Counted from the first letter of the stretch, positions 9,588 to 17,719 are shown. The stretch: 17,719 nucleotides of DNA from Candidatus Sigynarchaeum calidifontis (GCA_030587475.2 JAUQYZ020000251.1:1-17719); one strand, 5' to 3'. Notes: a model not told the origin generated them from the sequence alone. A program made the numbers and translations.

Positions 9588-10079
9588 TTACACATTATCG
9601 ATATGCGAAAATCTCTCAAGCACCAAAAAAAAAAAAGGGATCGGGCATGTCGCGCATCAAAATTGAAGGGGAAACGAGCCATCCGACAGAAATCATCGCA
9701 CGGGACGTCGTGCACGCAGTGATCGGACGCCTTGCAGCGATCAAGGAAACCCTTCGATCGATGCCGACCTTGCCATGTTTCACGAAAAATACAAGCATTC
9801 AGATGAAGAATTCCTTTATTTGTTTAATAAAGGCGAACTCTTCGATGAAGATGATTTTTTCGCCTGAGAAGGCTCGTTAAAGATCGTGCGCGCCAACAAG
9901 CTGAAGCCACGGCTCAAGTTCTTGGTGAAGCCGTGACGATCTTGCCAGCCCGCCGAGGAAGTCGGTCGATTATCGTTTCGCTAAATTGCCACCCATTATC
10001 ATAAAACGGGTATCCAACTTTTTATATGTACATCCGGTTCGATATCATGAACATCCGAACAACATTCATGAGGTCTAGA

Positions 10080-10313
10080 ATGGCAAGGAGCAAGGTATCC
10101 GTGGTCAACCGGAAGGGCATGATCACGATCCCGGCGGATATGAGGGAAAGGTTCAATTTACATGAAGGATCACGGGTAATCGTCATGGAAATCGATGGCC
10201 ATCTCGAGATCGTTCCAATCGTCGACATAGAGAAATTTAGAGCGCATTCTTATGCCGAATACTCGAAATCCGAAGACGAAACACGAGCGCTCGACCTGGA
10301 GCTAGAAAAATGA
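10080..10313 (+). CDS. vapB: AbrB/MazE/SpoVT-family antitoxin (VapB)
   Basis: VNRKGMITIPADMRERFNLHEG swapped-hairpin motif; stop overlaps the start of the PIN gene; TTTATAT box near 10021. Confidence 0.88.
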   Translation: MARSKVSVVNRKGMITIPADMRERFNLHEGSRVIVMEIDGHLEIVPIVDIEKFRAHSYAEYSKSEDETRALDLELEK

Positions 10314-10738
10314 CAGGAACCGCTTGCTTCGACGCGGGAGTCTTTTCAATCTTTTTCTCGAAGGAATGCACCGCGAAGGTCACGAACGTCATGCAGCAGC
10401 TAAAAAAGGGCTCGCTGGCCGCGCAAGTGGTTTCACCGGTCGTGACCGAGATTTTATACCACGCATGCACTACCGAAGGAAAGGAGCGTGCCCAAATTCT
10501 CGTGAGCTCGTTGCTAGAAGACTACAACATCCACGTGATAACTCCTGACCGGGCTCTCCTGTACTCTGCCGGTATTCTACGATGCCAGCACCGCACCGCG
10601 CTGTCATACATCGATTGTATGTCGATCGCACATGCATTGAAAATGGGCATTCCCTTTCACACGACGGAGAAGAAATTGAAACAGATACCCGGTAACGTGC
10701 TCCAGCGGCTGAAGGTTGTGAAATACGAGTTGCCTTGA
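10310..10738 (+). CDS. vapC: PIN-domain ribonuclease toxin (VapC)
   Basis: FDAG, VVTEI, LSYIDC, TTEKKL acidic PIN motifs. Confidence 0.88.
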   Translation: MTGTACFDAGVFSIFFSKECTAKVTNVMQQLKKGSLAAQVVSPVVTEILYHACTTEGKERAQILVSSLLEDYNIHVITPDRALLYSAGILRCQHRTALSYIDCMSIAHALKMGIPFHTTEKKLKQIPGNVLQRLKVVKYELP

Positions 10739-11047: not shown

Positions 11048-11205
11048 GCAACCGTGGCGAGTACCTGGACATGATGGGCTTGCCGCACGACTTATTAATT
11101 TACAACGACCCCCCTTATAGCACTGATTCGGGTCATGATGATTCGAACTATCTCGATTATCGATCTTATCACCCGCAAGTTTCCCACTCTGCGAAGAATT
11201 TGCAT

Positions 11206-11223
11206 CGAAACACTTATATATCG
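11206..11223 (+). promoter_or_regulatory. Archaeal BRE-TATA promoter at the head of the RNA island
   Basis: CGAAACACTTATATATCG, near-identical to CGAAAAAGTTTATATATCG at 12739; about 30 nt upstream of a structured RNA. Confidence 0.65.
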
Positions 11224-11600: not shown

Positions 11601-11674
11601 GCGGGCGTCATATAGTGGCAGTATGTGGCGTCGCCAGCGCTGACACGGGGGTTCGAGTCCCCCCGCTCGCACCA
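11601..11674 (+). tRNA. trnG: tRNA-Gly(GCC), C33, encoded CCA
   Basis: Acceptor GCGGGCG/CGCTCGC, loop TC-GCC-AG, T arm GGGGG-TTCGAGT-CCCCC, ACCA. Confidence 0.9.
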
Positions 11675-11689
11675 TCGCTTCCCACGCGC

Positions 11690-11763
11690 GCGTCGGTCGT
11701 CCAACGGCAGGGCCCGGGGCCTCCAACCCCGTGACGAGGGATCATCCCCCTCCCGTCGCACCA
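11690..11763 (+). tRNA. trnG: tRNA-Gly(TCC), atypical (C33, T-loop ATCATCC)
   Basis: Acceptor GCGTCGG/CCGTCGC with one mismatch, CGGGG-CCTCCAA-CCCCG, GAGGG/CCCTC T stem, ACCA. Confidence 0.75.
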
Positions 11764-11778
11764 TCTACCATGCACCGC

Positions 11779-11852
11779 GCTCCCGTGGTCTAACCGGCAA
11801 GGATGCCAGCTTCTCAGGCTGCGAGGTCCGGGTTCAACTCCCGGCAGGAGCA
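11779..11852 (+). tRNA. trnE: tRNA-Glu(CTC)
   Basis: GCTCCCG/CAGGAGC, CAGC-TTCTCAG-GCTG, CCGGG-TTCAACT-CCCGG. Confidence 0.85.
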
Positions 11853-11888
11853 CGACCACGCGACACTAAACGACCTAACGCGACACGA

Positions 11889-11964
11889 GCTTCCATGCTC
11901 TAGCGGCCAAGGAACTTGGACTTTCAATCCACGTGCGCGGGTTCAAATCCCGCTGGAAGCTCCA
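11889..11964 (+). tRNA. trnE: tRNA-Glu(TTC)
   Basis: GCTTCCA/TGGAAGC, TGGA-CTTTCAA-TCCA, GCGGG-TTCAAAT-CCCGC, TCCA. Confidence 0.9.
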
Positions 11965-11974
11965 CTCAAAGAAA

Positions 11975-12050
11975 GGCCCGTTCGGATAGCCCGGTAATCC
12001 ACCTGGCCGTGGCCCAGGCGTCGGACGTTCAAATCGTCCACGGGTCACCA
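11975..12050 (+). tRNA. trnH: tRNA with GTG anticodon (His), atypical (C33, A73, no encoded G-1)
   Basis: GGCCCGT/ACGGGTC, CCTGG-CCGTGGC-CCAGG, GGACG-TTCAAAT-CGTCC, ACCA. Confidence 0.78.
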
Positions 12051-12063
12051 ATATCACCACCAC

Positions 12064-12136
12064 ACCCCCGTAATTCAGCGGCCCAGAAGTCGGGGCCTTG
12101 AACCCCGGAACCGTGGTTCGAATCCACGCGGGGGTA
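12064..12136 (+). tRNA. trnQ: tRNA-Gln(TTG), C33
   Basis: ACCCCCG/CGGGGGT, CGGGG-CCTTGAA-CCCCG, CGTGG-TTCGAAT-CCACG. Confidence 0.88.
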
Positions 12137-12153
12137 TGACACGCCAGCAGAAC

Positions 12154-12229
12154 TGCCCCGTGATGTAACCGGCAAACAGGCGCGCCCCTGAAGCACGCAA
12201 TGGCGGTTCGAGCCCGCTCGGGGCAACCA
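12154..12229 (+). tRNA. trnQ: tRNA-Gln(CTG), C33
   Basis: TGCCCCG/CGGGGCA, CGCGC-CCCTGAA-GCACG, GGCGG-TTCGAGC-CCGCT, ACCA. Confidence 0.85.
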
Positions 12230-12292
12230 ACCCGGCCATGACGACAAACGAGCAAACCAACCAAGTAGCGAAAAAATGCATCAACAACCGGC

Positions 12293-12366
12293 GAGGTGGT
12301 ACGATAACGGCAGTCTCGCGGTCTCCAGAACTGCGGGCGTGGGTTCAACTCCTGCCCACCTCACCA
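12293..12366 (+). tRNA. trnW: tRNA-Trp(CCA), intronless
   Basis: GAGGTGG/CCACCTC, GCGGT-CTCCAGA-ACTGC, T loop TTCAACT, ACCA. Confidence 0.85.
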
Positions 12367-12738
12367 ACAAACCAAGCGTGAACGAAATGGCAGCACGGTT
12401 AGCGTTGAAATCAACAATCCCCACGCGGCCATCGGTCGCGGTGGTGTCCTATAGCACGAGGCAGCCCATGCAAGCCAGCAGCGCGCTGAAGGTGGTCGAC
12501 GTGATTTCAAGCATCGCCGGTGATGCACGGCTCGATTTTCCCTCGGCATATCTCGTCCCGCCATTCACGGCCGAGCCGGGGTCCCTCGCGGCCTATCGCC
12601 GCTGCTTGCCGGCACCAAAGCCATCGAGACGATCCCCGAACGGCGGCGCCGCCACGATCTTTTCTTTACGCCATGGTTCACGTGAGGTCAGTTATCTTCA
12701 AAAATATCGATTCTCTTGGCTATTCCGGCAATCTTTCT

Positions 12739-12757
12739 CGAAAAAGTTTATATATCG
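12739..12757 (+). promoter_or_regulatory. Second BRE-TATA promoter within the array
   Basis: CGAAAAAGTTTATATATCG, a copy of the 11206 motif. Confidence 0.65.
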
Positions 12758-12988
12758 GTGTCGATATCAATGATCTTGCAATTCAAATGAAAAAGAATTA
12801 CCACAAACCAAAATGGTGACCCGACCAAGAGACAACGAACGAGATCGCCTGCTAGCAAGAGACGATACCGGCACCACCGAGCACGGCCGGAGACGGCTAG
12901 CAGGGGATCGCTTGCCCGCAACGGGCACGATCCAGGCTTTCTACCCACCAGGACGATCAAGACCGTACCACGCGCCCAATGACACGAC

Positions 12989-13065
12989 GGGAGTGTCGTC
13001 CAACTTCGGCAAGACGCCAGGCCGTTAACCTGGACATGCAGGTTCGACTCCTGCCACTTCCGCCA
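12989..13065 (+). tRNA. trnN: tRNA-Asn(GTT), C33
   Basis: GGGAGTG/CACTTCC, CCAGG-CCGTTAA-CCTGG, GCAGG-TTCGACT-CCTGC, GCCA. Confidence 0.9.
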
Positions 13066-13083
13066 CCCGATCCCATTATCCAT

Positions 13084-13207
13084 GCGCCAGTAGCTTAGCA
13101 CATGATCTCCATCCCGTCCTTGCCAAGCGAAGTGCCACGGAGATTACATCGGATAAAGCATTTGTTTCACGAGCAAATAATCGTTGGTTCGATTCCAACC
13201 TGGCGCA
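13084..13207 (+). tRNA. trnV: tRNA-Val(CAC) with a ~50-nt structured D-loop insertion (about 13100-13148) carrying the repeated RNA motif
   Basis: GCGCCAG/CTGGCGC, D stem GCTT/AAGC, TTTGT-TTCACGA-GCAAA, GTTGG-TTCGATT-CCAAC; insert closed by ATCTCC/GGAGAT. Confidence 0.82.
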
Positions 13208-13222
13208 TCAATTTTTCTCCTT

Positions 13223-13296
13223 GGAAGCGTGGTGTAACGGCAGCACTTCGCACTGTCAGCGCGAGAATCGGGGTTAAATTCCCCGCGCTTCCGCCA
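13223..13296 (+). tRNA. trnD: tRNA-Asp(GTC), T-loop TTAAATT
   Basis: GGAAGCG/CGCTTCC, TCGCA-CTGTCAG-CGCGA, CGGGG/CCCCG, GCCA. Confidence 0.85.
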
Positions 13297-13594
13297 CCAT
13301 CGCTCGTTCGTGGGCTAAAATCGTTCTCCCCCCATTCCACGAAAAACATTAGTAATGGAGCGTCGATGGATATTCTTGGTTGATAACATGTGTGCAAATC
13401 GGTTTGACAAAAGCGCCGAGAATGAAGTCCGCAAGTAACAAATTTACACGGGAAATCTTCGCATGATGAAAGAAAAGCCGATAAATGGCACCGATCCTTC
13501 CCGATAGCCACGTGCCCAAGATATCTATCGGGGGCGACGTGAAGCGCCTGGCGAGAAAATTCGACGAGCAAAGGGGTTTCAAGGAGTCTTGAAT

Positions 13595-14155
13595 TCAATC
13601 GCACAACAAGCCGTTCCAGGTCTGGATGCATTCCTCCTTCGAGACATCGAATGCCTTCTCTACCTTGCTCCAGTCCGTTTGCGCCATGATGCCCTGCTTG
13701 TACCGCGAGTTGATGAACCGGGCGAGGTCGCGCGGTAATTGCTCGTTACTCGTGAAAATGTCGATGCAGAAAACGTGGTTCGATGCCTTGTCATAGACGA
13801 AGCCGGCTGTCTTCTCCGTGATGCTTATCAAGAGCTTGGCAGTCGGGGAAAAGAAGTAAAAATCGTTCATCATCTTCTCCTTGTGGATGAGGTAGCACGG
13901 GGAATCCCGGAGTTCCTTGATCGTGTCGATTGGTTTAACTCGCTGCAATTTCAAGGCCTCCTCCATGAAAGCCATGGTAAAAAGGACCACGTCGGCAATG
14001 GGCAAGGGGCGTGCAACAAGAACCGGGAACGGCACGACAACCCACTCGATCAACTTCGGCAGCAAGATGAGGCGTTCTGGCTGCCAGAAAAGCGACGCCA
14101 CCGGGTCATCGGGCAAGCCGAGGTCGTTCGCCTCGATTTCCAGCAGTTCGGCCAT
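13595..14155 (-). CDS. Hypothetical protein, antisense within the tRNA array
   Basis: Open frame with globular-protein composition (MAELLEIEANDLGLPDDP...ECIQTWNGLLCD). ATG 14155 preferred because the upstream ATG (14245) abuts tRNA-Phe. Confidence 0.7.
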   Translation of the reverse strand: MAELLEIEANDLGLPDDPVASLFWQPERLILLPKLIEWVVVPFPVLVARPLPIADVVLFTMAFMEEALKLQRVKPIDTIKELRDSPCYLIHKEKMMNDFYFFSPTAKLLISITEKTAGFVYDKASNHVFCIDIFTSNEQLPRDLARFINSRYKQGIMAQTDWSKVEKAFDVSKEECIQTWNGLLCD

Positions 14156-14246
14156 CGGTAACGAGACTTCATCCACCATGATCGTTGGATAGACCGAGGC
14201 CAAGGCATTTAATTGTATCATTGTGCGCTGGCAGACCATTATCATT

Positions 14247-14323
14247 GCAGTGATAGGCTAGCTGGGAAACCGCCCGGCTGAAAACCGGGACGTCGAGTGG
14301 TTCGAGTCCACTTCACTGCACCA
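14247..14323 (+). tRNA. trnF: tRNA-Phe(GAA)
   Basis: GCAGTGA/TCACTGC, CCCGG-CTGAAAA-CCGGG, AGTGG-TTCGAGT-CCACT, ACCA. Confidence 0.9.
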
Positions 14324-14348
14324 CCTTCCAATTCCACGTCGTACCTGC

Positions 14349-14428
14349 GAGCTCGTCGCCTAGCCAGGCAAGGGCAGCGGGCTTTTAACCCGTCTAGTTT
14401 GCGAGTTCAAATCTCGCCGAGCTCGCCA
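14349..14428 (+). tRNA. trnK: tRNA-Lys(TTT), 7-nt variable loop
   Basis: GAGCTCG/CGAGCTC, GCGGG-CTTTTAA-CCCGT, GCGAG-TTCAAAT-CTCGC, GCCA. Confidence 0.9.
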
Positions 14429-14477
14429 TTCTTTCTACAAATTCGAGGTGATTGACCGAGTAAGCCAACATCCACGA

Positions 14478-14610
14478 GGGCGGCCGCCGCCGTGCATCCG
14501 GGCCCGTGTTTCCACAACTGTCCTCTCCGAGAGGTGCCGTGGAAACTACATCGGCCACAGACTGTGAATCTGCATAGCCTCCTTGCCCGGCACAAAGGCG
14601 GCGGCCGCCC
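14478..14610 (+). ncRNA. Candidate Y-RNA-like ncRNA A (133 nt)
   Basis: Perfect 14-bp terminal stem GGGCGGCCGCCGCC/GGCGGCGGCCGCCC, inner GTG/CAC and CCGGG/CCCGG, conserved motif 14505-14554, anticodon-like arm CAGA-CTGTGAA-TCTG. Confidence 0.72.
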
Positions 14611-14691
14611 GTTATCCACCGCGATGATTCGAGGGGCACCACGACACGCGTGGCCCGATTCGGGCCACCACTTCTCTCCCCATTAGTCTTC

Positions 14692-14771
14692 GGGCTTGTC
14701 TCCTAGCCAGGCCAGGGAGGCGGACTCTTAATCCGCTCGTACCGCGAGTTCGATTCTCGCCAAGCCCACCA
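14692..14771 (+). tRNA. trnK: tRNA-Lys(CTT), 7-nt variable loop
   Basis: GGGCTTG/CAAGCCC, GCGGA-CTCTTAA-TCCGC, GCGAG-TTCGATT-CTCGC, ACCA. Confidence 0.9.
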
Positions 14772-15156
14772 AATATTCGTTGATACCCAAAATTCGCCGC
14801 CCGGAGCATTACCACCTGGAGTACGCGAGTGCAATGCTCGCCCGGGCGTGAAACGCTTGCCACCACGCGCCGCGGGGCGCTACCGGGGGGTTCTCACCGC
14901 CAAGTCCCCGTCCAGCGATCGCCTGCAGCGCCCGGTTCCAAGCAGGCTCGTTTTCCCCGGCGCGCCCGTCGGTGCGAGGCGCGCCGGAGCCCATCCCTTT
15001 CACGATCCATGCACGATTCTCGGTCCAAAAACGGCCAATTTCCCGCCGGAAGCACACGCCGCCTGTCGTAGCGGGTGAAAGCCCCGCGCAGGCGAACATG
15101 GATGCATCGGGCATCCAGGTTACCAACAACTGCGACCCACCCGGTCGCATTCCCCC

Positions 15157-15301
15157 GCATAGACGCAGCCGTGGACACGCGGAAGGGGGCCACGTGTTTC
15201 TGCATCCTGTCCTTCGCAAGGAGGTGCCGCGGAAACTACATCGTCACTCGAAAAGACGCTCCGGCCCCACACCGCGCCACAAGGGCTGTCTCGTGCAACC
15301 A
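15157..15301 (+). ncRNA. Candidate Y-RNA-like ncRNA B (~145 nt, ends in ACCA)
   Basis: Nested stems AGAC..AGCC/GGCTGTCT, GTGG/CCAC, GCGG/CCGC, GGGGCC/GGCCCC; conserved motif 15193-15243 with a compensatory change relative to ncRNA A and a GCAA tetraloop. Confidence 0.72.
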
Positions 15302-15357
15302 ATTTTTCGCACGTGATGGAAAACAACGACAGCACCAATCGCAACACCTGCGAAACG

Positions 15358-15379
15358 ACTGTCCTCGAACAAGAGGTGA
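15358..15379 (+). promoter_or_regulatory. Shine-Dalgarno (GAGGTGA) of the Ro60 gene inside a copy of the motif's apical hairpin
   Basis: ACTGT-CCTC-GAACAA-GAGG-TGA, about 10 nt before ATG 15389; compare AACTGT-CCTC-TCCGA-GAGG-TGCC in ncRNA A. Confidence 0.6.
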
Positions 15380-15388
15380 AAAAACAAT

Positions 15389-16948
15389 ATGGCAAGAAGC
15401 AAGTTCGGCAAGAAGGCTTCGATCGCGACCGACTATGGCGACGCTGACACCAGGAACTACGAGGCCTTCCCTGCCTGGTCGATGCCGCTCGACGAGCAAT
15501 TCCGCCAGCTCGCCTTCAACGGCATCATCGCGCACCAGTTCTACTGCAGCGAGGACGAGATCCTCCGGAGGGGCATGGGCATCATCGACAAGTTCGTCAA
15601 GGAAAACCCGGCGAAAGCGCTCGAGATCGCCGCGACCGCGCGCAACGAGGGCTTCATCCGTTCGGTCAACATCACCACGCTCGCCAAGGCAAGCACCAGC
15701 ACCGGGGCATTCAAGGAGTACTTCGACAAGATCGTCCTCACCCCGCGGGACATGGTGCAGTTCATCGACGTGATGCGCGCGAGCCGCGGCCTCGGCCGTG
15801 CCATCAAGGAGACCATGAACAAGTGGGTCGCGGCCAAGCTCGACGAGTTCTGGGCGATCAAGTATCGCAACCAGCTCCAGGACAGCATCCGGCTCGGTCA
15901 CGCCAAGTTCGACGACGAGGCCAAGGCCATGCTCGCCGACTATGTCATGGAGAACGGCGAGCAGGCGAAGCGCGACGCCATCGTGGCACGCTTCCCGGCC
16001 ATCAACGCGGTTGAAATGCTCAAGCGCATCAACCCGCTCGTCGACGAGGGTCGCGCCATCGATCTCATCACCGCGGCCCGCCTCGATTGGAACGTGGTCA
16101 AGGGCATCTTCCACCCGACCCCGGACATCTGGAAGGCCCTCGCGGAGCAGATGTCGGCCATTGCCCTCGTCCAGAACATCGCGTCGATCGAGAGGAACGC
16201 GGGCGCCGACTTCGCGCTCGATATCGTCAAGCGCAAGGTCACCGCGGAGTTTCTCAGGCGCGGCAAGGTCTTCCCGTTCACCCTCGCGCAGGCCTACATG
16301 CACGTCAACGACCGAGCCCTCAAGTCCGCCATCGGCAAGGTGCTCGACTCGCTGGCCCTCGCGCACGACTTCAGCAAGCTCGGCCGCGTCGCCGTGTGCC
16401 CGGACGTCAGCGGCTCGATGACCAGCCCGAGCTTCATCAACATCGTTATGCAACGTGCAAGCGGCAAAGGTGGCAAAGGTGACATCCCGGAGGGCAGCAT
16501 GCACGTGCCCATCCAGGTCGCGGCCATGATCGCGGGCATCCTCGCCGGCGCCACCCGCCACTCGCGGCTCCTCGCGTGGGACACCGAGGTCATGGACGAG
16601 CGCGCCCTCTTCGGCAAGGACAAGGAGTGGCGCACCCCGACCCGCATCATGGAGCGACTCATGCGCATCACCGGCGGCGGCACCTTCATGGAGGCCCCGG
16701 TCAAGTACCTCGTCGAGCACCGCGTCGACGTCGACACGTTCGTCCTCGTCACCGACTCGGAGGAGTGGGGCGAGGGTTGGCTCGCCTACTGGAAGAAATA
16801 CAAGCAGTCGCACAAGGCCGCGCGGGCGTTCCTCGTCAGGGTCGACCTCTACCCGACCCGCCCGTTCGGTGGCGACGACTGCGAGCGGCTTGGCATCACG
16901 CAGATCTACGGCTTCAGCGAGATGGCCTTCAAGGTCATGCTCCAGTAA
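15389..16948 (+). CDS. rsr: Ro60/Rsr-like TROVE-domain RNA-binding protein with C-terminal vWA domain
   Basis: N-terminal 'NYEAFPAW', QFY, 'ARNEG.IRS', 'GLGRAIK..WV', 'IKYRN..D.IRLGH', 'ALVQNI', 'VFPF' TROVE motifs; MIDAS DVSGSM, GGT, VTDSE; 519 aa. Confidence 0.9.
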   Translation: MARSKFGKKASIATDYGDADTRNYEAFPAWSMPLDEQFRQLAFNGIIAHQFYCSEDEILRRGMGIIDKFVKENPAKALEIAATARNEGFIRSVNITTLAKASTSTGAFKEYFDKIVLTPRDMVQFIDVMRASRGLGRAIKETMNKWVAAKLDEFWAIKYRNQLQDSIRLGHAKFDDEAKAMLADYVMENGEQAKRDAIVARFPAINAVEMLKRINPLVDEGRAIDLITAARLDWNVVKGIFHPTPDIWKALAEQMSAIALVQNIASIERNAGADFALDIVKRKVTAEFLRRGKVFPFTLAQAYMHVNDRALKSAIGKVLDSLALAHDFSKLGRVAVCPDVSGSMTSPSFINIVMQRASGKGGKGDIPEGSMHVPIQVAAMIAGILAGATRHSRLLAWDTEVMDERALFGKDKEWRTPTRIMERLMRITGGGTFMEAPVKYLVEHRVDVDTFVLVTDSEEWGEGWLAYWKKYKQSHKAARAFLVRVDLYPTRPFGGDDCERLGITQIYGFSEMAFKVMLQ

Positions 16949-16977
16949 GCCGGCAAGCCGCCACGTCGAAAACCAGT

Positions 16978-16988
16978 TTCCTTTTTTT
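16978..16988 (+). terminator. Possible oligo-T terminator after the Ro60 gene
   Basis: TTTCCTTTTTTT about 30 nt past the stop codon. Confidence 0.35.
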
Positions 16989-17007
16989 CCCAACAACGAC
17001 TATCGAA

Positions 17008-17082
17008 GCAAGGATGGCCCAGTCGCCCGGCAGCGTCCTGATAAGGCGCCTCACGCAGGTTCAATCCCTGCTCCTTGCACCA
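17008..17082 (+). tRNA. trnI: tRNA-Ile(GAT), D-loop lacks GG
   Basis: GCAAGGA/TCCTTGC, GCGTC-CTGATAA-GGCGC, GCAGG-TTCAATC-CCTGC, ACCA. Confidence 0.82.
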
Positions 17083-17104
17083 ATCCCGCGTTTTATCGAT
17101 CCAC

Positions 17105-17177
17105 GGGTTCAGAGCTCGAGCGGCAGAGCAACGGTCCAGTAAACCGTTTGGTGTGGGTTCGAGCCCCACTGGGCCCC
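17105..17177 (+). tRNA. trnT: tRNA-Thr(AGT), atypical (A34, C33, G8)
   Basis: GGGTTCA/TGGGCCC, D stem GCTC/GAGC, ACGGT-CCAGTAA-ACCGT, GTGGG-TTCGAGC-CCCAC. Confidence 0.78.
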
Positions 17178-17217
17178 CTTGCATGCTCATCAAGAAAGCG
17201 GAACAAGTAGCAGTAAC

Positions 17218-17295
17218 GGGCTCGTAGTTCTAACCGGATAGAACGCTTGGCTCGCATCCGAGAGGCTTGGGGTTCGAGTCCCCACGAGTCCGCCA
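17218..17295 (+). tRNA. trnA: tRNA-Ala(CGC)
   Basis: GGGCTCG/CGAGTCC with G3:U70, CTTGG-CTCGCAT-CCGAG, TGGGG-TTCGAGT-CCCCA, GCCA. Confidence 0.88.
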
Positions 17296-17299
17296 ACAC

Positions 17300-17373
17300 G
17301 TGCGGGTAGTCTTAACCTGGCAAAACCACCGGTTTGCAACCGGATGACTCGGGGTTCAAATTTCAACCCAATA
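17300..17373 (+). pseudogene. Degenerate tRNA-Ala(TGC)
   Basis: CCGG-TTTGCAA-CCGG arm and GGTTCAAAT are intact, but the T stem and acceptor stem are largely unpaired. Confidence 0.6.
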
Positions 17374-17466
17374 TATAGGCTGGATGGATGTCCCCGCCCG
17401 TACACTTCTCGAGGAATCCATACGGGAGACTCGCCAGGCGGGTCCACATTGCAGCATTCTTTCAGC

Positions 17467-17545
17467 GGGGACGTGGTCTAGCGGCACATATGATCCCGGC
17501 TTCGGAAGCCGGTGCACGGCGGTTCGAATCCGCCCGTTCCCACCA
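17467..17545 (+). tRNA. trnP: tRNA-Pro(CGG)
   Basis: GGGGACG/CGTTCCC, CCGGC-TTCGGAA-GCCGG, GGCGG-TTCGAAT-CCGCC, ACCA. Confidence 0.9.
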
Positions 17546-17552
17546 AAACCAT

Positions 17553-17648
17553 GGAACCGTAGCTTAACCGGGAAAGTGGTTTCATCCACACCGACAGCCC
17601 CCGACCGAAGCTCGGGCGTTCGGCGATCGAGGCGCCGCGGTTCCACCA
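17553..17648 (+). tRNA. tRNA-like gene (GAA anticodon, C33) with a ~21-nt D-region insertion and T-loop ATCGAGG
   Basis: GGAACCG/CGGTTCC+ACCA, CCCGA-CCGAAGC-TCGGG, CGGCG-ATCGAGG-CGCCG; extra hairpin GTGG-TTTCAT-CCAC. Confidence 0.7.
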
Positions 17649-17653
17649 TTTCC

Positions 17654-17719
17654 GGGGCCGTATTCTAGCGGTCGAAGATCCGGGCTTTGGGAGCCCGATG
17701 TCGTTGGTTCGAATCCAAC
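17654..17719 (+). tRNA. trnP: tRNA-Pro(TGG), truncated by the window end
   Basis: GGGGCCG start, CGGGC-TTTGGGA-GCCCG, GTTGG-TTCGAAT-CCAAC. Confidence 0.85.

Follow-up and report, generated by a model that had tools for sequence, protein, structure and literature searches.

A same-strand tRNA array with an embedded Ro60 gene and candidate partner RNAs in an Asgard archaeon

Introduction

A survey of archaeal tRNA clusters documented clusters of 10–29 genes in 29 of 2,481 genomes, exclusively from Halobacteria and Methanobacteria; 20 of these 29 clusters hold a TROVE gene, and those of haloarchaea were tied to plasmids and proviruses (Morgado & Vicente, 2019; PMC6333295). Here we describe a tRNA array with an embedded Ro60 (TROVE) gene in an Asgard archaeon, found in a stretch of 17,719 nucleotides from Candidatus Sigynarchaeum calidifontis (GCA_030587475.2, JAUQYZ020000251.1:1–17719); this whole stretch is referred to below as the window. 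An earlier note on the same DNA had recognised the array, proposed that it was an auxiliary, stress-induced tRNA replacement and repair island, and described such arrays as known mainly from bacteria, plasmids and phages, a description that overlooks the archaeal survey and its 20 TROVE-bearing clusters.

Several other systems invite comparison. Bacterial L-arrays spread horizontally, and the trn operon of Anabaena is induced under translational stress (Santamaria-Gomez et al., 2021; PMC8421152); that study deals with bacterial hosts and mentions neither Ro60 nor TROVE (0 occurrences). The rsr-yrlBA-rtcBA locus of Salmonella places a Ro60 ring gene beside structured RNAs, at least one of them with a tRNA-like domain, and Ro60/Rsr–Y RNA systems are linked to tRNA metabolism (Chen et al., 2014, PMC4201824; Hughes et al., 2020, PMC7790460); tRNA mimicry is described for the YrlA RNAs of bacteria (PMC4201824). 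Cluster C1 mycobacteriophages and others carry about 30 tRNAs and a Ro-like protein on one genome, with anticodon-loop positions that differ from those of their hosts’ tRNAs, and such changes in phage tRNAs have been proposed to evade VapC-type nucleases (van den Berg et al., 2023; PMC10264068). The Nidhogg viruses of Asgard archaea encode Ro60 and an RNA ligase.

The array described here shares with the archaeal TROVE clusters a set of archaeal-type tRNAs gathered in one region, redundant isoacceptors, some pseudogene-like members, an embedded TROVE gene and toxin–antitoxin genes close by, and its density of 3.9 tRNAs per kb compares with 3.6 in one published cluster (PMC6333295). It differs in its host (the surveyed clusters are all from Euryarchaeota and none is from Asgard archaea), in its size (31 genes against a maximum of 29) and in showing no plasmid or provirus signal. 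Like the bacterial L-arrays, it is a long, non-periodic, same-strand run of supernumerary and largely redundant tRNAs, with embedded protein genes and a sprinkled phylogenetic distribution; unlike the Anabaena operon, for which stress induction was shown experimentally, it is known from sequence alone (PMC8421152). It resembles the Salmonella locus in setting a Ro60 gene beside structured RNAs and in its link to tRNA, but no RtcB, RtcA or RtcR gene is adjacent. With the phage arrays it has in common some 30 tRNAs accompanied by a Ro60 protein, unusual anticodon-loop positions and, in those related Asgard arrays that have a Ser gene, Ser(GCT) only (PMC10264068); unlike them, it is chromosomal and without virus genes. 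TROVE-linked tRNA arrays are already known in Halobacteria and Methanobacteria; the Asgard case is new to the literature, in which our search for tRNA arrays of Asgard archaea turned up no publication.

Results

A 31-gene array around Ro60

The window is the entire contig C212 of a 269-contig, 4.99-Mb metagenome-assembled genome (MAG), estimated to be 89% complete with 5% contamination. ARAGORN called 19 tRNA genes in it, all on the plus strand between 11601 and 17648, and the Rfam model RF00005 found 18 tRNAs above its gathering score, including one more, cut at its 3′ end, at 17654–17719; tRNA-Lys(CTT) was matched by Rfam solely in a permissive run (E ≤ 5). As ARAGORN found just 52 tRNAs in the whole 5-Mb genome (about 0.06 expected per 6 kb), this clustering is far beyond chance. 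CCA is encoded in 16 of the 20 window genes, and the Rfam alignment of the window tRNAs spans the whole 71-position model in 71–77 nt, confirming the earlier description of a large plus-strand array whose genes mostly encode CCA and lack introns.

The order of the window genes—G,G,E,E,H,Q,Q,W,N,V,D,F,K,K,[Ro60],I,T,A,P,(96-nt),P—agrees overall with the one first reported, apart from details of three members. The Val gene placed at 13132 scores weakly (30 bits) and reads better as a 124-nt Val-like chimera, in which a 7-bp acceptor stem, an anticodon arm and a T arm are combined with a D-loop insert of about 50 nt and CCA is missing. The gene described as Phe-like was called by ARAGORN alone, as Trp(CCA); it is 96 nt long, has no Rfam match even at E ≤ 5 and has a fold that is not separable from shuffles (z −1.3). 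The supposed Ala pseudogene is visible as an Ala(TGC)-like remnant, called neither by ARAGORN nor by Rfam at E ≤ 5. Coordinates of all features are collected in Table 1.

The array continues past the window, as had been predicted. The final 19 nt of C212 are the initial 19 nt of contig C82, the join completes tRNA-Pro(UGG) and 11 additional same-strand tRNA genes stand at the start of C82. Over 21.5 kb the joined sequence is colinear, at 99.97% identity, with a 27.7-kb contig from an assembly made independently, and two further assemblies concur with the join; the same 20-kb arrangement is thus present in three assemblies beyond this one, and a genome of a second species in the same genus has the order Ro60-I-T-A-P-P-R... 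on a single contig. These agreements speak against a chimeric contig, a concern that the earlier note had raised together with that of a viral contig, and no virus gene is present in the flanks. In full, the array runs over window 11601–17719 and C82:1–1816 and comprises 31 tRNA or tRNA-like genes over about 7.9 kb of one strand (plus), covering 18 amino acids, with no gene for Ser or Cys. Protein genes within it encode Ro60, a GNAT acetyltransferase, one conserved open reading frame (ORF) and one orphan ORF. Positions 1–46 of the window are the end of contig C127 (reverse strand), a match through which C212 could probably be extended upstream as well.

The host is an Asgard archaeon, Sigynarchaeum-like by protein names, in line with the archaeal-type genome recognised at the outset. 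Close relatives of its Ro60 are named Sigynarchaeota, and a protein encoded in the flanks shares a cluster (≥90% identity) with one assigned to Candidatus Sigynarchaeum springense. No archaeal small-subunit rRNA was found in the MAG, so the host is classified by the names of its proteins.

Two tRNA sets in one genome

Elsewhere in the genome lie dispersed tRNA genes, of which some 25–30 were detected in the 89%-complete MAG; many are long enough to hold introns and probably do. This list is not a census: the first-pass filter misses some tRNAs found by other tools, the intron mode of ARAGORN gave many implausible calls in the genome, and brute-force intron removal on 27 candidate dispersed tRNAs left the anticodons ambiguous.

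The two sets are clearly distinct. For 13 array tRNAs the dispersed set contains a counterpart of identical anticodon, and identity within these pairs is just 49–71%. On RF00005, dispersed tRNAs score 60–78 bits and array tRNAs 30–58 bits. CCA is encoded in 22 of the 31 array genes, compared with about 6 of 20 dispersed ones. Position 33, where U is near-universal in tRNAs, is occupied by C in 15 of the 31 array genes and in none of the well-formed dispersed tRNAs, almost all of which have U33. Within the array, isoacceptor families are placed in tandem. The proposal that the array is an auxiliary set gains support from the 13 counterparts, with their low identity and higher scores.

C33 is conserved in the array orthologues of His, both Gln, Asn and Tyr down to 68% Ro60 identity. 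Beyond these relatives, C33 is likewise frequent: a Bryobacteraceae genome has an unrelated array with Ro60 in which 9 of 27 tRNAs carry it (L096), and on a viral contig it is present in 4 of 26 (L020). Another anticodon-loop feature is tRNA-Thr(AGT), whose A34 is kept in four related arrays (window 17105–17178; L012, 8193; L006, 4854; L002, 11531 and 15032), that of L002 having Ala(AGC) in addition. A34 tRNAs are unusual in archaea. When a TadA/ADAT-type deaminase for this A34 was sought in the genome, the sole deaminase-family match was a ComEB-like dCMP deaminase outside the locus.

Conservation of the array

The same gene order surrounds Ro60 in five related lineages, with Ro60 identity falling from 86% (over a 72-residue fragment) to 54%; among these, L006, L003, L002 and L140 have Ro60 proteins 83–54% identical to that of the window. 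Across related arrays, 95 stem pairs have changed on both sides with pairing kept, 31 have changed on one side with pairing kept and 28 are broken; the compensatory changes indicate selection on the tRNA fold. Anticodons stay constant between orthologous arrays while the stems co-vary, and G3:U70 is retained in both array tRNA-Ala genes. Between same-genus orthologues, most array tRNAs are 85–99% identical, compared with 82–98% for dispersed tRNAs. The array thus reads as maintained, not decaying.

Its distribution is narrow. Among 61 genomes of the order, Ro60 was found in just 3. The array is present in the same genus, and a single-contig member of the family yielded dispersed tRNAs only; genomes in both comparisons are incomplete.

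Ro60 protein and phylogeny

An embedded Ro60 gene, as the earlier note had it, is borne out by domain matches and by predicted fold. The 519-residue product matches Pfam TROVE (PF05731), the HEAT-repeat ring, followed by vWA_Ro60 (PF25045), both above cut-offs, as well as NCBIfam Rsr. Its AlphaFold model (predicted local distance difference test, pLDDT, 85) has a template-modelling (TM) score of 0.72 to Xenopus Ro60 (1yvp), with ranges of 0.71–0.73 to 1yvp and 2i91 and of 0.68–0.71 to Rsr (2nvo). The DxSxS motif of the vWA metal-ion-dependent adhesion site (D339/S341/S343) is invariant in 22 homologues. Searched against the PDB, a profile of this Ro60 and its relatives aligned over its full length with human and Xenopus Ro60 (about 1e-44) and with Deinococcus Rsr (3.5e-29); the window protein by itself, unlike this clade profile (A1), has its best score on Rsr. 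GC content at third codon positions (GC3) is 0.92, the highest of 2,264 long ORFs in the genome (mean 0.71; EF-1alpha 0.82), an extreme for which foreign origin and very strong codon bias are both conceivable causes.

In a quick maximum-likelihood tree of Ro60s from Asgard archaea, bacteria and virus-like or plasmid-like contigs, those linked to arrays fall together in one clade within a group dominated by Asgard sequences. The sister of this Asgard group unites virus-like and plasmid-like contigs—such as L013, with a prim-pol gene, and L142, with TraT and partition genes—with Lentisphaerota and Kiritimatiellota. A separate clade holds the Ro60s of Bryobacteraceae and those of the viral contigs with tRNA arrays that the tree includes. 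Across the tree of life, arrays seem to have become linked to Ro60 on more than one occasion. The 80 best genome matches of this Ro60 clade include no haloarchaeal TROVE gene, so the linkage in haloarchaea and that seen here may have arisen separately. A scan of IMG/VR with the single Ro60 protein returned nothing, an alignment-based scan returned relatives of at most 36% identity, and phage Ro60 proteins are only 19–24% identical to the array Ro60.

A shared handle in RNAs next to Ro60

A hairpin of the form TGTCCTY-loop-RAGGTG, here called the handle, occurs in three copies within 900 nt, against 0.02 expected. The copies lie in two free-standing non-coding RNA (ncRNA) elements, ncRNA A (handle at 14519–14536) and ncRNA B (15208–15226, with a T5 run following at 15303–15307), and in the Ro60 leader, where the 3′ strand of the hairpin is the GAGGTGA ribosome-binding site. 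Through this overlap Ro60 might regulate its own expression. In ncRNA A and ncRNA B the handle is nested in a second helix and followed by TACATCG; the D-loop insert of the Val chimera carries a handle variant that also ends in TACATCG. All three handle-bearing RNAs lie within 2.3 kb upstream of the Ro60 gene. Four loci retain the handle elements, whose copies differ from one another in compensatory ways, and ncRNA A is conserved in L006, L003 and L002.

One conserved handle common to three RNAs and the Ro60 leader suggests, by conservation and position, that ncRNA A, ncRNA B and the Val chimera are candidate Y-RNA-like partners of Ro60. They differ from Y RNAs and YrlA in having no match to the corresponding Rfam models; the tRNA chimera here appears unpermuted, with the handle in its D-loop, and the handle is distinct from the GNCGAA motif of YrlA. 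More distant Ro60 genes (≤40% identity), from Freyarchaeota, Promethearchaeota and a plasmid-like bacterial contig, have a single tRNA-like gene 50–350 nt upstream and no array (L004, 9806–9880; L007, 9649–9721; L141, 9750–9830; L142, 9883–9955); these genes are possibly YrlA-like partners.

Table 1. Features of the array and its immediate surroundings. Positions are those of the window unless a contig is named.
Feature	Position	Strand	Basis
VapB-like (AbrB/MazE) antitoxin	10026–10313	+	Pfam MazE_antitoxin, 4e-11
PIN/VapC nuclease, directly upstream of array	10310–10738	+	Pfam PIN, 1.7e-7
P1, putative promoter: BRE/TATA-like box (BRE, TFB-recognition element), ~380 nt before first tRNA	11205–11221	+	read from sequence; architecture as P2
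tRNA block 1: Gly(GCC), Gly(TCC), Glu(CTC), Glu(TTC), His(GTG), Gln(TTG), Gln(CTG), Trp(CCA)	11601–12366	+	ARAGORN, Rfam; same order in L002
Conserved ORF, 165 aa (128 aa, 12387–12773, in sister assemblies)	12276–12773	+	69% aa identity to L006
P2, internal BRE/TATA box with conserved leader	12740–12757	+	conserved in L006 and L002
tRNA-Asn(GTT)	12989–13065	+	ARAGORN, Rfam
tRNA-Val(CAC)-like chimera, 124 nt	13084–13207	+	fold, sequence, repeat family D8; 30 bits on RF00005
tRNA-Asp(GTC)	13223–13296	+	ARAGORN, Rfam
950-bp stretch between tRNA-Asp and tRNA-Phe	13297–14246		blastn colinearity
Orphan ORF, 216 aa	13595–14245	-	inside 950-bp stretch
tRNA-Phe(GAA) and tRNA-Lys(TTT)	14247–14428	+	ARAGORN, Rfam
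ncRNA A: 14-bp GC terminal stem, handle module, anticodon-arm-like hairpin	14478–14610	+	minimum free energy -72.7 kcal/mol, z -5.6
tRNA-Lys(CTT)	14692–14771	+	ARAGORN; Rfam permissive run
ncRNA B, handle-bearing	15157–15301	+	fold z -2.8; conserved in 4 loci
Third handle copy, Ro60 5′ leader	15360–15378	+	pattern match; invariant in 4 loci
Ro60/TROVE ring protein with vWA domain, 519 aa	15389–16948	+	Pfam, NCBIfam, PDB profile, model
tRNA-Ile(GAT), tRNA-Thr(AGT), tRNA-Ala(CGC, with G3:U70)	17008–17295	+	ARAGORN, Rfam
Degenerate tRNA-Ala(TGC)-like remnant, T arm broken	17299–17368 (approx.)	+	read from alignment
tRNA-Pro(CGG)	17467–17545	+	ARAGORN, Rfam
Aberrant 96-nt tRNA-like gene, ACCA end, non-canonical loops	17553–17648	+	ARAGORN alone, as Trp(CCA)
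tRNA-Pro(TGG), 5′ part, completed on C82	17654–17719	+	Rfam, overlap join
GNAT acetyltransferase (Acetyltransf_3-like) inside array	C82:500–1000		conserved in same-genus genome and L002 (77% identity)

Other features of the array

Two BRE/TATA-like boxes, P1 and P2, precede tRNA genes, P1 being a putative promoter by its architecture, and T-runs follow ncRNA B, Ro60 and the GNAT gene. Beyond P2 lies a 20-nt leader, ATCAATGATCTTGCAATTCA (window 12758–12790), which is identical in L006, one base off in L002 and more conserved than the surrounding tRNAs. The conserved ORF shows a mild excess of third-codon-position changes and has no match in Pfam, NCBIfam or PHROG. The 950-bp stretch is missing from L006, where the Asp and Phe genes are adjacent. 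The orphan ORF within it has just one relative, 73% identical, among 5.8 billion proteins; a homing nuclease was considered for it and rejected, no family in Pfam, NCBIfam or PHROGs being matched. On C82, an ORF at 490–1059 was discarded as a conserved gene in favour of the true frame (500–1000), that of the GNAT acetyltransferase, which has a paralogue of 54% identity on contig C53. The related array L002 (11668–14685) has Ro60 followed by an Rnl2-family RNA ligase, a ribbon-helix-helix (RHH)–PIN toxin–antitoxin pair and a GNAT gene, all between tRNA genes.

Flanking genes

Metabolic genes make up the flanks. Upstream of the array are genes for an ammonium transporter, KaiC, a B12 radical-SAM enzyme, a citrate-type transporter, HpaB, a URO-D family protein and a VapBC pair; downstream are those for an amidohydrolase, two HGD-D proteins and a ZIP transporter. 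The VapBC pair is given as context and is not counted as part of the array. The upstream radical-SAM gene is common to L002 (73.5% identity), whose Ro60 is 68% identical. Shared downstream synteny between L140 and C82, through an amidohydrolase, was rejected, the two proteins being unrelated.

The earlier note had seen no integrase or phage gene, and this holds over some 11 kb upstream and some 11 kb downstream, where searches of the larger ORFs against Pfam, PHROGs and NCBIfam revealed no integrase, transposase, relaxase or virus gene and no capsid, terminase, replication or conjugation hallmark. No att-like flanking direct repeats were found, the only repeats being tRNA arms and the handle. 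To us, the locus looks like an acquisition or invention of old standing in one Sigynarchaeial family, now passed on at a stable site. The designation as a repair island fared less well: the downstream flank had been proposed as a place to look for RtcB, archease, a CCA-adding enzyme and deaminases, and none of these, nor RtcA or a tRNA deaminase, is encoded in the flanking ORFs. The related array L002 does have a ligase, of the Rnl2 family, right after Ro60.

Discussion

We consider it probable that this locus is a chromosomal accessory tRNA array of the L-array or TROVE-cluster kind, accompanied by Ro60 and at least three handle RNAs (two free-standing and one Val chimera), and that it provides the cell with a second tRNA pool. 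Of this, the analysis shows the genes themselves, that they are redundant and conserved with compensatory changes, the fold of Ro60, the handle that the RNAs have in common and a chromosomal site that is stable.

Such an array would be expressed from at least two BRE/TATA promoters as multi-tRNA precursors, from which RNase P and RNase Z would excise the tRNAs. With intron-less genes that mostly encode CCA, processing would call for no splicing endonuclease, ligase or CCA-adding enzyme. The product would be a second pool, probably chargeable, running parallel to the dispersed housekeeping set, and it could keep translation going once housekeeping tRNAs have been depleted. As half of its members have C33, the pool probably escapes some of the anticodon-loop nucleases or modifiers that act on housekeeping tRNAs; in favour of this, PIN genes number at least 25 in the genome, one of them immediately upstream of the array. 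Ro60, presumably by binding the handle, would act together with the handle RNAs, probably to survey or trim misfolded or damaged products of the locus.

Several observations weigh against this account. No dispersed tRNA for Asn, Asp or Phe was found in the 89%-complete MAG, so the array may be the sole source for some amino acids, the MAG being incomplete; a separate housekeeping set, which the earlier note had advised looking for, is present as dispersed tRNAs but may have gaps, and the array does not hold the only tRNA copies overall, with a caveat for these three amino acids. A number of array genes are poor as tRNAs, given the odd T-loops, the 96-nt gene, the Val chimera, the remnant and the lower scores, and C33 could impair decoding instead of protecting the tRNA. 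At E ≤ 5, Rfam gave no Y_RNA or YrlA match next to Ro60, and the remaining non-tRNA matches resemble tRNA cross-matches. With so many PIN genes in the genome (at least 25), the VapBC pair might stand beside the array by chance.

Among other explanations, array and Ro60 might be the cargo of a provirus or plasmid remnant, or of a recent transfer, serving the element itself by supplying codons or by evading tRNA-cutting defences of the host. The scattered occurrence of Ro60 in the order, with a single-contig family member that has dispersed tRNAs only, would fit, as would the extreme GC3 of Ro60, the virus-like (L013) and plasmid-like (L142) contigs in the sister clade of Asgard Ro60s, the toxin–antitoxin pairs beside or within arrays and the existence of Ro60-linked tRNA arrays on IMG/VR contigs; there are also precedents in the plasmid- and provirus-associated TROVE clusters of haloarchaea and in the Ro60 and RNA ligase of Nidhogg viruses. 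We nevertheless hold this to be unlikely, since the locus lacks hallmark genes of mobile elements within about 11 kb on each side and att-like repeats around it, shares its radical-SAM neighbourhood with a lineage at 68% Ro60 identity, belongs to one clade of array-linked Ro60s within an Asgard-dominated clade, and has no close relative in IMG/VR or cultured phages (best matches 36% and 23% identical). An assembly or binning artefact, in which the contig would be chimeric or come from another organism, is improbable in the extreme: the MAG has 5% estimated contamination and tRNA repeats can mislead assemblers, but the same 20-kb arrangement recurs in three further assemblies, its order is kept in a second species and a flanking protein clusters at ≥90% with a Candidatus Sigynarchaeum springense protein.

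A different possibility is that most array genes specify tRNA-shaped RNAs for some other use, as clients or partners of Ro60, toxin decoys or regulators. This would account for C33 in 15 of 31 genes, the aberrant T-loops of several, Rfam scores below those of dispersed tRNAs and the chimeras of tRNA and Ro60 handle inside the array, and it would sit well with the tRNA mimicry of YrlA (PMC4201824) and the single tRNA-like gene upstream of distant Ro60s. Yet 18 amino acids are covered systematically, with isoacceptor families in tandem; tRNA-Ala keeps its G3:U70 and CCA is encoded in 22 of 31 genes; anticodons are conserved across orthologous arrays with co-varying stems; and the handle is restricted to three RNAs. 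We therefore give this alternative little credence. We attach even less to the idea that the array is the main constitutive tRNA operon and the dispersed genes a minor set. It could draw on the missing Asn, Asp and Phe genes and on the modest number of dispersed tRNAs (some 25–30 in an 89%-complete MAG), but there are relatives in the order and family without Ro60, and one that shows no array, dispersed tRNAs fit the tRNA model better and carry U33, and the array in this genome lacks Ser and Cys.

The reading that we favour, of an accessory array forming a second tRNA pool, has a more far-reaching form, in which the locus would be a back-up kit owned by the cell: intron-less, CCA-bearing tRNAs whose altered anticodon loops (C33 in half of them, A34 in tRNA-Thr) leave them invisible to host or viral anticodon-loop nucleases, policed by Ro60 with the help of handle RNAs derived from tRNA. 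We regard this version as unlikely.

Conclusions

If the array proved to be only acquired and silent, it would add one more routine entry to the surveys that exist. As it stands, it is the largest archaeal example that we have found in print (31 genes, against 10–29), and through it the known range of TROVE-linked tRNA arrays now includes the Asgard archaea, to which eukaryotes are more closely related than to any other known group. It reveals two tRNA sets in one genome, one dispersed, often of intron length and with U33, the other clustered, intron-less, mostly encoding CCA and with C33 in half of its members. The features that most deserve attention are this C33, the A34 of tRNA-Thr and the previously unrecognised Ro60 handle. 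With Ro60 lying beside candidate partner RNAs in an archaeon, Ro60–RNA biology becomes testable outside bacteria and animals. Should the back-up kit prove real, it could bear on the origin of the eukaryotic Ro60–Y RNA system, given that this Ro60 belongs to an Asgard-dominated clade whose profile fits eukaryotic Ro60 at least as well as bacterial Rsr.

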